DNA from: an uncultured Pseudomonadota bacterium
Lineage (GTDB): Bacteria > Pseudomonadota > Alphaproteobacteria > RF32 > CAG-239
NCBI GenBank assembly: GCA_949295025.1
Contig: CASFJK010000008.1
Span: 606 to 64,605 of the forward strand
Direction: 5' to 3'
Length of the DNA: 64,000 bases
The translations under genes and the position numbers were made by a program. Below the pieces are notes generated by a model. The model made no database searches, had not been told where the DNA came from, and saw only the letters and a list, made by a program, of their open reading frames with translations. Positions 14,849 through 49,344 of this stretch are shown here, piece after piece; the stretch's first letter is position 1; each line of letters opens with the position of its first letter.

Positions 14849-16780
14849 TTATTTATCTTGAGACGGCATCTTGGCTTCTTCAACCAAAGCTTTGATAAAG
14901 TCATCAAGTTTGATAACCTCTTGTTTGTCAGAACCAATACGGCGAACCGTAACAGTTCTTTCTTCTTTTTCTTTGGCACCGACAACGGCAATAACCGGAA
15001 TTTTAGCGACAGAGTGTTCACGTACTTTGTAGCTGATTTTCTCGTTACGCAAATCAGATTTAGCATAAAGTCCGTTTGCTTTCAAAAGTTTGGTAACCTC
15101 TTCAGCATAATCATCCATATCACTGGTAATTGGGCAAACCACAACTTGTTCCGGAGAGAGCCAGAGTGGCAATTTTCCGGCATGGTTTTCAATCAAAATT
15201 CCGAGGAAGCGTTCGATAGAACCAAACAAAGCGCGGTGCAACATTACTGGTTGGTGTTTTTCACCATCTTCGCCGATATAAGAAATATCAAAGCGTTGTG
15301 GCAAGTTCATATCAACTTGGATAGTACCACATTGCCATTCACGACCAATTGCATCTTTCAAAATGAATTCAAGTTTCGGTCCATAGAAAGCGCCTTCGCC
15401 GGGGTTGATTTCATATTTGTAACCATGGCTTTCCAAAGCGTGAGCCAAAGCATTTTCACATAAATCCCAAATTTCATCAGAACCGATTCTGTAAATGCTG
15501 TCCGGACGTGTAGAAAGATAAATCTTCACATCTTCAAAGCCAAAGTCTTTATAAATATCCAAAATGAGTTTCAAAGTTGTGATGCATTCAGCTTCCATTT
15601 GTTCCGGAGTGCAGAAAATGTGAGCATCATCTTGTGTAAACTCACGTACACGCATCAATCCCATCAAAGCACCGGATGCTTCATAACGGTTCACTTTACC
15701 AAATTCGGCAATACGTAGCGGCAAATCACGATAAGATTTAATACCTTGTTTGTAAACAAGCAAACCACCAGGGCAGTTCATTGGTTTAATGCAGAACCAT
15801 TTTTTATCTTCGGTTTGACCGGAATAGTTATGAGCACCATACTTATCCCAGTGACCAGAAGTTTCCCACAAACATCTGTCCATAACGCGAGGAGTGCAAA
15901 TTTCAATATAGCCGTTATTCTCTTGGCGTTTGCGCATATATTCAATCAATTTACGATAGATTTTGTAACCTTTGTCATGCCAGAAAACAGCACCCGGAGC
16001 ATATTCCGGTTCAAAGTGGAACAAATCCATTTCTTTGCCAAGTTTACGGTGGTCGCGCTTAGCTGCTTCTTCCATCATTTTCAAATATTCATCTAAATCT
16101 TTTTTAGAAGCCCAAGCGGTAGCATAAATACGTTGCAACATTTCTTTTGTTGCATCACCACGCCAATAAGCGCCGGCAACTTTCATCAATTTGAAAGCAT
16201 CACCGATTTTGCCGGTTGAAGGGACGTGCGGACCACGGCAAAGGTCTGTAAAGTCACCTTGACGATAAAGAGAAATAGTTTCATCTTCCGGCAAATCTTC
16301 AATGATTTCTGCTTTGTAGTGTTCACCTTTGTCTTTGAAGAATTTAATAGCTTCATTACGAGGCATAACAATACGCTCTAACTTTTCATCACGTTTAACA
16401 ATCTCGTGCATTTTGGCTTCAATTTTAGCAAAATCTTCAGTAGTGAAAGGTTCTTTACGAGCAAAGTCATAGTAGAAACCATTGTCGATAGCCGGTCCGA
16501 TTGTTACTTGAACATCTTTCCACAACTCTTTTACGGCTTGAGCCATAACGTGAGAGCAAGAGTGACGCAAAATTTCCAAGCCTTCTTTATCCTTGCCGGT
16601 GATGATAGTCACGGTTGCGTCGGTAGTGATAGGAGTGCTTAAATCTTGTGTCTTTCCGTTAACGGTGATAGCTAAAGCAGCTTTAGCCAAACTAGAACTG
16701 ATTTTATTGGCGATGTCAAAACCATTGACCCCGCTTTCCATATCTAACATACTGCCATCTGGCAATTTAATCGCAACCAT
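14849..16780 (-). CDS. thrS: Threonine--tRNA ligase
   Basis: TGS domain, RHSCSH, DLCRGPH, RDHRKLG, KPMNCPG, RVREFTQDDAHIFC. Confidence 0.98.
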   Translation of the reverse strand: MVAIKLPDGSMLDMESGVNGFDIANKISSSLAKAALAITVNGKTQDLSTPITTDATVTIITGKDKEGLEILRHSCSHVMAQAVKELWKDVQVTIGPAIDNGFYYDFARKEPFTTEDFAKIEAKMHEIVKRDEKLERIVMPRNEAIKFFKDKGEHYKAEIIEDLPEDETISLYRQGDFTDLCRGPHVPSTGKIGDAFKLMKVAGAYWRGDATKEMLQRIYATAWASKKDLDEYLKMMEEAAKRDHRKLGKEMDLFHFEPEYAPGAVFWHDKGYKIYRKLIEYMRKRQENNGYIEICTPRVMDRCLWETSGHWDKYGAHNYSGQTEDKKWFCIKPMNCPGGLLVYKQGIKSYRDLPLRIAEFGKVNRYEASGALMGLMRVREFTQDDAHIFCTPEQMEAECITTLKLILDIYKDFGFEDVKIYLSTRPDSIYRIGSDEIWDLCENALAHALESHGYKYEINPGEGAFYGPKLEFILKDAIGREWQCGTIQVDMNLPQRFDISYIGEDGEKHQPVMLHRALFGSIERFLGILIENHAGKLPLWLSPEQVVVCPITSDMDDYAEEVTKLLKANGLYAKSDLRNEKISYKVREHSVAKIPVIAVVGAKEKEERTVTVRRIGSDKQEVIKLDDFIKALVEEAKMPSQDK

Positions 16781-16803
16781 ATTAAAATATCCTTTTTTTA
16801 TTT

Positions 16804-16828
16804 ATTAATCATCACGCCATTAATTAAT
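16804..16828 (-). promoter_or_regulatory. Candidate thrS translational operator (anticodon-mimic hairpin)
   Basis: Sense AUUAAUUA(A)U-GGCGUG-AUGAUUAAU, with CGU in the loop, about 9 nt before the SD. Confidence 0.45.
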
Positions 16829-16876
16829 TATTGTTTCATAAAGGCAATGGCTTTCCTTTATCAAACTGCAGAAGAG

Positions 16877-41377: not shown

Positions 41378-42895
41378 TTAGTAAGAACGAGCATAAATTA
41401 CATCAATTGTTGCCGGTTTTCCGGTAAGCAAGCAAACACCTTCCGTGTTGCTTTGGTCGAGAGGCAAGCAGCGAATGTTGATTTTCATTTCTTTCAAAAT
41501 TTCTTCGCTCTTTTCATCCCCGCTCCATTTACCGCGAACAAAAGCAACCTTTTGTCCGTCAGCACCTTCAATCCAGCAGTTTGGATTAGCAAAATATGCC
41601 TTGAACTCTTCCGGAGTTTTAATATCGGTACGAATATTGTTATCTAAGCGCTTTTTAGCCTTGTCAAACATGGCTTTTTGAATATTTTCCAAACGTTCAG
41701 CAATCGTGTTGACAAATTCGGTTCTGTGAGCAATTTCCTTGCCCTCAGGTGTGCCGAGTTTAAGACGTTCTTTAACCATGAGGTTATCGCCCTCAACATC
41801 GCGCATACCAATCTCGCAAATAACCGGAGCACCTTTTTTGGTCCACTCCCAGAATTTATCAACAGATTTACGATCACGTTTATCAACTTTGATTCTGATT
41901 TTTTCAGCAAAGGGAGCTTTAGTTTTGAGCTCTTTAACCAAATTATCAATATAAGCCATAACCTTAGCTTCATCATTTTCGTTTTTAACAACCGGAATGA
42001 TAACAACTTGGTAAGGTGCAATTCTCGGCGGAACAACCATACCTTCATCATCGGCATGAGTCATAATCACACCACCGATAAGACGGGTTGAAACACCCCA
42101 AGAAGAGGTGTAAGCAAATTCAGGTTGGTTATTGGCGTTGATGAAAGAAATATTAGCAGACTTTGCAAAGTTTTGACCGAGGAAGTGAGATGTACCGGCT
42201 TGCAAAGCTTTACCGTCTTGCATCATAGCCTCAACGCAATAAGTATCAACAGCGCCAGGGAACTTATCAAATTCTGGTTTGCGTCCCATAATGACCGGCA
42301 TGGCAAGAGTCTCTTCACAAAGTTCGCGATAAGCATGCAACATGCGGATAGTTTCTTCTTCGGCTTCTTTAGCGGTTGCATGAGCCGTGTGACCTTCTTG
42401 CCACAAAAATTCACGTGTTCTCAAAAACAGACGAGGGCGCATTTCCCAACGAACCACGTTTGCCCATTGGTTAACCAAAACCGGCAAATCGCGGTAAGAT
42501 TTAACCCATTTTGAAAAAGAGTCGGCAATGATGGCTTCACTGGTCGGACGCACGATAAGAGGTTCATCCAACTCGGAAGACGGAACCAGTTTGCCGTCTT
42601 TCATAGCCAAACGAGAGTGAGTAACCACAGCCATTTCCTTAGCAAAACCGTCGACATGTTCGGCTTCTTTTTGAAAGAATGAAAGAGGAATAAACATCGG
42701 GAAATAGCAATTTTCGTGGTCGGTTTCTTTAATTTTTTCATCAAAAACGTCGCGGATTCTTTCCCAGATTCCATATCCCCACGGTTTGATAACCATGCAT
42801 CCAGGGCTGGAAGAGTTTTCAGCCATATCAGCTTCGGCTACAACGTTTTGGTACCATTCAGGATAATTTCCTGCTCTAACATTTTTTAGTGTCAT
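41378..42895 (-). CDS. proS: Proline--tRNA ligase, archaeal/eukaryote-like type
   Basis: KEAEHVDGF, VRPTSE, QWANVVRWEMRPRLFLRTREFLWQEGHT, QAGTSHFLGQNF, C-terminal ARSY; start MTLK after AAGGA. Confidence 0.97.
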   Translation of the reverse strand: MTLKNVRAGNYPEWYQNVVAEADMAENSSSPGCMVIKPWGYGIWERIRDVFDEKIKETDHENCYFPMFIPLSFFQKEAEHVDGFAKEMAVVTHSRLAMKDGKLVPSSELDEPLIVRPTSEAIIADSFSKWVKSYRDLPVLVNQWANVVRWEMRPRLFLRTREFLWQEGHTAHATAKEAEEETIRMLHAYRELCEETLAMPVIMGRKPEFDKFPGAVDTYCVEAMMQDGKALQAGTSHFLGQNFAKSANISFINANNQPEFAYTSSWGVSTRLIGGVIMTHADDEGMVVPPRIAPYQVVIIPVVKNENDEAKVMAYIDNLVKELKTKAPFAEKIRIKVDKRDRKSVDKFWEWTKKGAPVICEIGMRDVEGDNLMVKERLKLGTPEGKEIAHRTEFVNTIAERLENIQKAMFDKAKKRLDNNIRTDIKTPEEFKAYFANPNCWIEGADGQKVAFVRGKWSGDEKSEEILKEMKINIRCLPLDQSNTEGVCLLTGKPATIDVIYARSY

Positions 42896-42921
42896 AAGTT
42901 TATTCCTTAAAAAGTTTAATA

Positions 42922-42965
42922 TCGCAATTAAAAGCCCGTTCCCCCAATGGAACAAGCCTGCGCGA
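42922..42965 (-). promoter_or_regulatory. proS leader hairpin displaying Pro anticodon (candidate operator or attenuator)
   Basis: Sense UCGCG-C-AGGCUUGUUCC-AUUGGG-GGAACGGGCUU-UUAAU-UGCGA. Confidence 0.6.
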
Positions 42966-43192
42966 GCATAACAGAGATAATATATATTGTAAATATATAA
43001 AGTAAGATAAATTTCGCTTGCAAATTAAAATAGGAGAGCTAGACTCATAAACGTAACTAATTTTGGTAAGAAAGATTTTATCTTGAGATTGTTTCTTCCT
43101 GAGCAATTTTTTTGAGTTGTCTTGACCAAGCAGTTTATTAAACCAAAAGGATAGTTATATGGATTAACCTGTTTATGCAAAGGATTAAGAAT

Positions 43193-43396
43193 ATGGCAAC
43201 AGGAACAGTAAAATGGTTTAACAACAGAAAGGGCTATGGTTTTATTTGTCCTGACGAGGGCGGAAATGATGTATTTGTTCATATTACCGCAGTTCAAAAA
43301 GCAGGCTTAAAAACCTTGAAAGAGAACGCAAAAGTTTCTTATGAACTTATGGAAGAAAAAGGCAAAACAGTTGCCGGAAATTTGAAACTGGCATAG
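43193..43396 (+). CDS. Cold-shock protein
   Basis: GTVKWFN, KGYGFI, DVFVH. Confidence 0.96.
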   Translation: MATGTVKWFNNRKGYGFICPDEGGNDVFVHITAVQKAGLKTLKENAKVSYELMEEKGKTVAGNLKLA

Positions 43397-48782: not shown

Positions 48783-48918
48783 TTTAAAAACATATACCTC
48801 GGAGTCGCAAGCCCTTGCGAACTCTTGCTTTCAAAAAAATAAAAAAATGGGGATAATTTTTTACTTTTTTTAATAAATAAACTTGCTTTTATTTTTTATA
48901 TGTTTAGAGTCTGAAAAT

Positions 48919-49301
48919 AGGCAGTCGGATAGCTGCGTCGGGAAACCGGCGAGGAAAGTCCGGGCTTCATGGAAACAAGATACCAGATAACGTCTGGCTG
49001 GGGAAACCCAAGGGAAAGTGCCACAGAAAATTACCGCCGCGGTTTGTTCTGCGGTAAGGTTGAAAAGGCGGTGTAAGAGACCACCGCAAAGCCGGTAACG
49101 GTTTTGGCAAGGTAAACCCTATCTGAAGCAAGACCAAGTTAGGAGGGCTTTGAGCAATCAAAGTTACACGAGGCGTTTCCACCTCGCTCCAGAGGTAGGT
49201 CGCGATGAGCAGCATGGTGACATTCTGCCCAGATGAATAGCTATCGTTTTGCTGAGCGGCAACGCTTGAGTAAAATACAGAACCCGGCTTATAGACTGCC
49301 T
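48919..49301 (+). ncRNA. rnpB: RNase P RNA (type A)
   Basis: GAGGAAAGTCCGGGCT, GGAAAGTGCCACAGAAA, GGTAAAACCC, ACAGAACCCGGCTTATA; P1 AGGCAGTC/GACTGCCT. Confidence 0.96.
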
Positions 49302-49344
49302 GATTATTTTGAAAAATAAGACAAGAAACAAAAGGGTAAAATAT

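Follow-up and report, generated by a model that had tools for sequence, protein, structure and literature searches.

The leader of the prolyl-tRNA synthetase (ProRS) gene proS in an uncultured gut alphaproteobacterium carries a hairpin that goes beyond chance folding and belongs to a 48-nt RNA motif made of two hairpins, P1 and P2; this motif is a new, lineage-restricted RNA family. In every genome of the bacterial family in which it was found it stands directly before proS, and the P1 loop ends in three invariant G residues preceded by a variable base, like the anticodon and the following G of tRNA-Pro. From these comparisons we judge the chances to be about even that the P1-P2 leader is an operator bound by ProRS, with autocontrol like that of Escherichia coli thrS, and we treat it as a candidate of that kind. 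The stretch of DNA analyzed, 64,000 nt in length, is referred to as the window throughout.

The proS leader and its two-hairpin RNA motif

The window proS gene encodes a ProRS of the E type, and a structure-database search returned Thermus thermophilus 1h4q as the closest solved structure (E 4e-126, residues 9-505). No second ProRS was detected in the genome assembly (1.68 Mb, 36.8% G+C) using an E-type ProRS query. The features of the locus, from the gene to its promoter, are as follows.

41378..42895, minus strand: proS, E-type (archaeal/eukaryote-like) prolyl-tRNA synthetase, 505 aa, from the translation and the structure search
42904..42908, minus strand: Shine-Dalgarno (SD) sequence AAGGA, read from the sequence
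42915..42932, minus strand: P2, 6-bp A/U hairpin, 42932-42927 with 42920-42915, loop UGCGAU at 42926-42921
42934..42957, minus strand: P1, conserved 9-bp stem, 5' arm 42957-42949 and 3' arm 42942-42934, 6-nt loop
42943..42948, minus strand: P1 loop AUUGGG, family consensus A-N-N-G-G-G, an anticodon-like NGG plus G
42958..42959, minus strand: predicted transcription start, A42959 or G42958, placed by spacing 6-7 nt past the -10 element
42965..42973, minus strand: extended -10 element TGtTATGCT, consensus scan
42988..42993, minus strand: -35-like hexamer TTTACA, consensus scan

Read along the minus strand, the window hairpin consists of AGGCUUGUUCC (42959-42949), the loop AUUGGG (42948-42943), and GGAACGGGCUU (42942-42932); on its 3' side UUAAUUGCGAUAUUAAAC is followed by the SD sequence AAGGA and by the ATG at 42895-42893. 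P2 occupies the 18 nt that separate P1 from the SD sequence. Among the leaders, the distance from the end of P2 to the SD sequence was 0-9 nt, and in the shortest ones the last A residues of P2 belonged to the SD sequence itself.

The preliminary description of this DNA had reported a strong hairpin with loop AUUGGG before proS, and both the coordinates and the ViennaRNA fold agreed with it. The 131-nt window leader folded with an MFE of -22.9 (z -1.84; 8 of 200 shuffles were as stable) and formed the hairpin as described, and an 84-nt piece beginning at the predicted transcript start had an MFE of -17.9 (z -2.68; 1 of 200). P2 also formed in the latter single-sequence fold, as an AU-rich hairpin between P1 and the SD sequence. 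At the proS leader, Rfam 15 produced no match at the gathering score and only chance-level rows up to E 10, one of which was an S15 leader (11.2 bits, E 7.2). Neither a T-box nor a tRNA matched there, even up to E 10, and the window leader held no CCN codon in a frame open into proS; the reported lack of a T-box and of a Pro-rich leader peptide was therefore borne out. In the whole window, only two Rfam matches reached the gathering score.

48917-49307, plus strand: RNase P RNA class A, Rfam, 281.8 bits
14335-14407, minus strand: tRNA gene, at the Rfam gathering score

In a first comparison, 41 related genomes were searched and E-type proS was found in 23. The same hairpin, with differing stem sequences, preceded proS in 19 of these 23 loci. 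When the 19 leaders were aligned with a MAFFT-based procedure, 93.8% of the cells were paired and the covariation score was 0.436, compared with 0.202 ± 0.018 for shuffles (0 of 500 reached 0.436) and no more than 0.134 for slid partners. RNAalifold, run without a given structure, returned a 9-bp P1 and a 6-bp P2 and no conserved alternative pairing. Of the 11-bp stem originally proposed, the inner 9 bp were thus conserved, whereas the two outer pairs, which extend the stem to 42959/42932 in the window, were unpaired in 8 and 9 of the 19 relatives. A further extension, UCGCG/UGCGA, paired in the single-sequence fold but was not conserved: its 3' half UGCGA is the P2 loop, and its 5' half UCGCG falls in freely varying columns and probably lies upstream of the transcript start. 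With transcription predicted to begin at the foot of P1, the UCGCG arm would be promoter DNA and not RNA.

The larger alignment comprised 75 leaders (62 distinct), namely 73 fetched from 77 matches plus two loci from metagenome-assembled genomes. In it, 98.8% of the cells were paired and the score was 0.529, as against at most 0.126 for slid partners; this alignment was fitted to a covariance model and leans towards the structure, a bias from which the MAFFT-based 19-leader result is free. All aligned sequences came from one family, and the conservation counts given here are thus not independent. Compensatory changes were seen at 7 of the 9 P1 pairs and changes on both sides at 1 of the 5 modelled P2 pairs. 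P2 was paired in 100% of cells, with one A-U pair replaced by C-G in 19 of the 62 distinct sequences. The closing pair of P1 was C-G in 56 of 62, a U.G wobble in its lower stem was kept in 58 of 62, and another pair was U.G in 10 of 62. The P2 loop had the consensus U-R-Y-G-W-U, which is conserved and not anticodon-like.

The position of P1 and P2, inverted repeats at +1 to +45 of the promoter, would also suit a DNA operator at which a transcription factor sits over the transcription start. This explanation is highly improbable: the arms changed freely while complementarity was kept, the frequent G.U pairs would count as mismatches both in a DNA palindrome and on the opposite strand, and the invariant letters lay in the unpaired loop and not in the arms. 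The retained U.G wobble together with the compensated pairs points to sense-strand RNA rather than a DNA palindrome. A pairing of the P1 5' arm with the SD region, 7 bp in the window, was also considered and was rejected, as it was lost in relatives with other stems.

Association with proS and distribution among relatives

We built a covariance model, R1, for the 48-nt motif. Its only significant match in the window genome was the proS leader, with 70.1 bits (E 3e-14), and the second-best scored 18.3 bits (E 0.4). Within the window's family, R1 matched 77 of 151 genomes belonging to 12 of 23 genera, with one match per genome and each before proS. Of the 73 fetched loci, 72 had the proS start codon 9-21 nt 3' of the motif and one was cut by a contig end; the coordinates of the four unfetched matches put the motif 12-19 nt 5' of proS. 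Of the 151 family genomes, 143 carried E-type proS, about half of them without the motif. In one genus, 7 of 12 genomes had the same promoter and a short unstructured proS leader, and four further genera had proS leaders of their own, different from P1-P2. The element is dispensable, being missing from many relatives that bear proS, and this counts against its being an operator.

In relatives from four genera (L019, L020, and L195-L202), proS had no promoter or leader of its own and began 10-20 nt past the stop codon of an upstream gene, the product of which ended in ...GGELRN or ...GGELRA. From the look of this C-terminal peptide, the upstream gene is probably pheT. The same enzyme is consequently wired into an operon in some genera and placed under a structured leader in others.

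A quick ProRS tree of 44 rows placed 15 motif-bearing rows in one clade (SH-aLRT 97) and the other two in its sister group among motif-less rows, and the basal genera had no motif. This topology tentatively suggests one gain and at least two losses of the motif.

Outside the family, R1 matched none of 78 E-type proS loci from the genome collection. When it was run on 80 genome-collection loci together with L022, only L108 and L112 were significant, and both are family members with 82-83% ProRS identity. A hairpin script applied to the genome-collection loci found no recurring hairpin with a G-rich loop. In a metagenome scan with the sister-family ProRS as the query, 80 loci of 45-60% identity were obtained; the motif was found in 0 of the 80, and a loop ending in GGG(N) occurred in only 3, at no shared place. 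The proS leader of the sister family, represented by one genome, had, at the corresponding position, a 9-bp hairpin with the loop GUGGG and an AU hairpin after it. It scored 12.6 bits with R1 (E 1.4), and this single sequence may be a diverged relative of the motif.

The enzyme itself was more widespread. E-type ProRS was found in 116 of 121 genomes sampled from the window's alphaproteobacterial order, and of 15 genomes sampled from other families of the class, 14 gave weak E-type ProRS matches only and one gave none. The open frames that held the listed weak matches were about 430-550 aa long, as would fit the short bacterial-type ProRS. This distribution suggests that horizontal transfer replaced proS in the order long ago.

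Promoter, predicted transcript start, and possible generic roles of a 5' hairpin

The promoter scan alone did no better than shuffles (2 sites versus 2.5 ± 1.7 expected). The arrangement TTYACA-17-TGnTAnnnT, in which the middle number is the spacing, recurred in relatives with and without the motif. In 54 of 73 leaders, 6-13 nt separated the end of TGnTAnnnT from the first paired base of P1, and in 7 more TATACT or TATAGT was recognized by eye 8-10 nt before P1. In 11 of the 73, the -10 element lay 22-34 nt upstream and P1 was kept though not terminal; one leader had no recognizable -10 element. By promoter spacing, P1 is therefore predicted to begin within a few nucleotides of the mRNA 5' end in most members (61 of 73). 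The preliminary description had named a transcription start downstream of the hairpin as evidence against its proposal; the start predicted here is at the foot of the stem.

Assembled RNA-Seq contigs of a relative 90-95% alike, from two runs of one study, gave a weak hint in the same direction. The proS contigs ended at 42934 and 42937 with no loose ends, and nothing covered 42938-43085. These ends are compatible with a start at P1, although contigs cannot show a start. The next contigs, starting at 43086, belonged to a csp gene (43175-43396, plus strand) that is divergent from proS and has a long leader (43086-43175). Rfam matched this leader to the cspA thermoregulator RF01766 below threshold, at 27.8 bits (E 2.6e-5) where the gathering score is 78, and the csp contigs from the two runs had high depth and carried 11-12 unmatched letters before 43086. 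The 11 leaders with the more distant -10 element, L015, L023, and 9 others from two genera, had an extra 5' stretch that could form a small hairpin, P0.

A hairpin in this position might simply protect the message from 5'-end-dependent decay. P1 would then be a 5'-terminal stabilizing stem-loop and the AU-rich P2 a translational enhancer, and no specific regulator would be involved. The promoter spacing in the 54 leaders and the 7 more agrees with such a role, as does a stem sequence that covaries freely, and P1 resembles the ompA-type 5' stabilizers in being predicted within a few nucleotides of the mRNA 5' end. Stabilizing stem-loops of the ompA type have no loop sequence requirement, however, whereas the P1 loop is invariant at 4 of 6 places. 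The conservation of GGG, of the first loop A, of the closing C-G pair, of the U.G wobble, and of the P2 loop would be left unexplained; P1 was retained in the 11 leaders in which it is not terminal; and a generic device would not be limited to one gene per genome. We consider a purely stabilizing role quite unlikely, the invariant loop arguing that stabilization would not be all that P1 does.

P1 is also followed by a U-rich tail, which leaves room for a role in termination. In that case, P1 and its tail would act as a weak promoter-proximal intrinsic terminator, an attenuator stopping part of the transcripts about 35 nt in, and the conserved loop could be the handle of a modulating factor, possibly ProRS itself. 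P1 is GC-rich and U-rich sequence follows it in all members, with 5-6 U in the 8 nt past the stem in those members that were read off the alignment; the window tail, UUUUAAUU, has 6 U in 8 and a run of 4. To set this tail against ordinary terminators, we surveyed the window genome, in which 306 terminator-like hairpins were found at 1175 ORF ends. Of these 306, 237 had at least 7 U in 8 and 220 had a U run of at least 6, and only 50 had a U run of 4 or less, so that the P1 tail is far weaker than usual. Only three U residues of the tail were invariant, the base before them being other than U in 23 of the 62 distinct leaders, and those three are explained by P2 pairing, in which the compensatory change from A-U to C-G was observed. 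A start at the foot of P1 leaves no upstream antiterminator partner, and no conserved one was found; there is no leader peptide with Pro codons, and an invariant loop is not needed by a terminator. Attenuation in this form appears rather improbable.

The invariant loop and candidate control by ProRS

The preliminary description had predicted an invariant loop GG on a covarying stem, and the larger alignment gave this result, with GGG in all 62 distinct leaders and 7 of 9 stem pairs compensated. The letters of the P1 loop in the 62 distinct sequences were distributed as follows.

Place 1: A 61, G 1
Place 2 ("U33"): U 40, A 17, G 2, C 1, gap 2
Place 3 (wobble-equivalent): U 50, C 10, A 2
Places 4-6: G 62, G 62, G 62

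Numbered as tRNA positions, places 3-6 read N34-G35-G36-G37, and the three triplets found, UGG, CGG, and AGG, are all proline anticodons. The four unpaired columns 5' of P1 varied freely, each base making up roughly a quarter. The invariant GGG is meaningful because these flanking columns vary, which indicates that the sample had diverged enough. The three tRNA-Pro genes of the window genome have the anticodons UGG, GGG, and CGG and the discriminator A73, and their anticodon loops (UUUGGGA, AUGGGGU, and UUCGGGA) all contain G35, G36, and G37. C31-G39 closes two of the three loops and A32 is present in one. The closing C-G pair and the leading A of P1 match these features of the organism's own tRNA-Pro and were therefore counted in favor of an anticodon-arm mimic.

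The fit is imperfect. U33 is universally conserved in tRNA anticodon loops. The likeness to U33, anticodon, and G37 that had been claimed for the loop held for NGG and the following G, which are fixed in the sense described above, but the letter corresponding to U33 was U in only 40 of 62, and the P1 loop counts 6 nt where an anticodon loop has 7.

E-type ProRS recognizes mainly G35 and G36 of tRNA-Pro, according to one study (PMC11229370), and for E. coli ProRS G37 and its methylation are reported also to contribute (PMC9976931). A fixed GGG with a free preceding base fits the pattern expected of tRNA-Pro positions 34-37. A T-box-like pairing of the loop with NCCA was excluded, since the base preceding GG is not always U but also C or A.

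The same invariant GGG with its free preceding base defines a specific ligand without naming it, and the G-rich loop might be read by a different partner. TrmD, the tRNA (m1G37) methyltransferase, recognizes G36-G37 in the anticodon arm; another RNA-binding protein, a small RNA, or an rRNA segment would be further candidates, and GGGG could pair with a C/U-rich RNA. Against such partners, the exclusive link with proS points to the proline system, there is no conserved C-rich stretch in the leader or the first codons, and a GGA of the CsrA type is not conserved. A partner other than ProRS is, in our judgment, unlikely.

We favor ProRS as the ligand because of the exclusive link with proS, the free wobble with fixed GGG, the anticodon dependence of E-type ProRS, and the nearness of P1 to the SD sequence. 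In the proposed ProRS operator, the P1 helix with its loop A-N-N-G-G-G would present G35, G36, and G37, with a free wobble position, to the anticodon-binding domain of the enzyme, and P2 would serve as a compact spacer between P1 and the SD sequence, so that a ProRS dimer on P1 would cover the ribosome landing site. When ProRS is in excess of free tRNA-Pro, the enzyme would bind the leader and initiation would be lowered; when tRNA-Pro is in excess, the enzyme would be competed off the leader. The comparisons establish the structure, the pattern of its conservation, the exclusive link with proS, and the place beside the ribosome binding site; we infer the transcript start, the binding of ProRS, and the direction of the effect, repression. 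Several features count against the operator: the distance of about 50 nt between the P1 loop and the start codon, the 6-nt loop, the variable U33 place, the presence of one anticodon-like hairpin only, and the absence of the motif from the E-type proS loci sampled outside the family.

The closest known system is E. coli thrS, in which anticodon-like hairpins form the operator of ThrRS and swapping the anticodon-like letters swaps the repressor; ThrRS blocks binding of the 30S subunit, and mRNA, tRNA, and 30S compete, as set out in a review (PMC11088916). In both cases the leader belongs to the gene of a class IIa synthetase, and a hairpin adjacent to the ribosome binding site shows the identity letters of the cognate anticodon; the same competition logic of mRNA, tRNA, and 30S would be expected for proS by analogy. 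The two also differ in several respects. No sequence or Rfam relationship of the proS leader to thrS was found, and the enzyme is an E-type ProRS. The thrS operator has two anticodon-like hairpins serving the dimer, whereas P1, with its 6-nt loop, is the only such hairpin in the proS leader. The thrS elements lie within a long four-domain leader, whereas the proS element is predicted to stand at the extreme 5' end of a leader of about 65 nt.

Other leaders share parts of this design. Yeast HisRS (HTS1) and AspRS bind their own mRNAs at putative anticodon mimics and tune translation to the tRNA level (PMC6542539); those cases are eukaryotic, involve other enzymes, and lie elsewhere in the mRNA, whereas the proS element is defined by sequence comparison. 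The ribosomal-protein leaders are likewise small and lineage-restricted, belong to the gene of an RNA-binding protein of translation, and mimic its RNA ligand, but they mimic rRNA sites, whereas the mimicked ligand here would be the anticodon arm of a tRNA. T-box leaders control proS in many Firmicutes. Like them, the proS element stands in the leader of a synthetase gene, would read the tRNA system, and has a hairpin followed by U-rich sequence; unlike them (about 200 nt, showing a codon and pairing with the anticodon and NCCA), it is 48 nt long and shows anticodon-like letters.

No bacterial proS operator of such a kind was found described in the text of open-access articles. Passages of a survey published in 2021 and covering 26 genomes refer to a cysS uORF motif and to nothing for proS (PMC8632094), and the tRNA-mimicry principle "may apply to other AARSs" according to a passage of a review (PMC11088916). 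Synthetase autoregulation by tRNA mimicry has essentially one well-studied bacterial case, thrS, and the P1-P2 motif offers a small, sharply bounded candidate for another, with a different enzyme; if the operator reading holds, it would be a variant of the thrS principle. A fuller version of this proposal is that P1-P2 is the first bacterial ProRS operator and the second bacterial kind based on tRNA mimicry, a minimal single hairpin at the mRNA 5' end that would be read via N34-G35-G36-G37 by a horizontally acquired E-type ProRS, and that it arose within one gut alphaproteobacterial order and was lost several times. We rate this version as possible, a little short of an even chance. In a bolder extension, TrmD would also act on the loop with G36-G37, and ProRS synthesis would thereby be tied to the m1G37 state of the cell.

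The natural variation of the loop amounts to ready-made mutagenesis, with the wobble position free and G35-G37 fixed. A 48-nt motif and an ordinary soluble dimeric enzyme make the proposal directly testable even though the organisms are uncultured, and with the motif the known cis-regulatory leaders would gain a new RNA family.

The preliminary description had gone further and suggested, from the thrS leader of the same window, that several synthetases of this lineage use anticodon mimics. This was not upheld by thrS, the sole other gene surveyed, in which the hairpin was weak and, among the loci read, confined to one genus.

16781-16876, minus strand: thrS leader (CDS 14849-16780)

In the window, an AU-only hairpin with CGU in its loop stands in this leader about 30 nt ahead of the SD sequence. 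The 5' end was readable in 25 of the 26 thrS loci retrieved. A conserved stretch around the CGU loop was present in 9 of 13 genomes of the window's genus and missing in the other 4; over the 70 N-terminal ThrRS residues used for locating the start, the nine carriers shared at least 94% identity, which makes them too alike for covariation. The stretch was found in 0 of the 12 loci with a readable 5' end from other genera, where thrS mostly lay close behind an upstream gene. A second hairpin was observed after the stop codon of the gene upstream of thrS.
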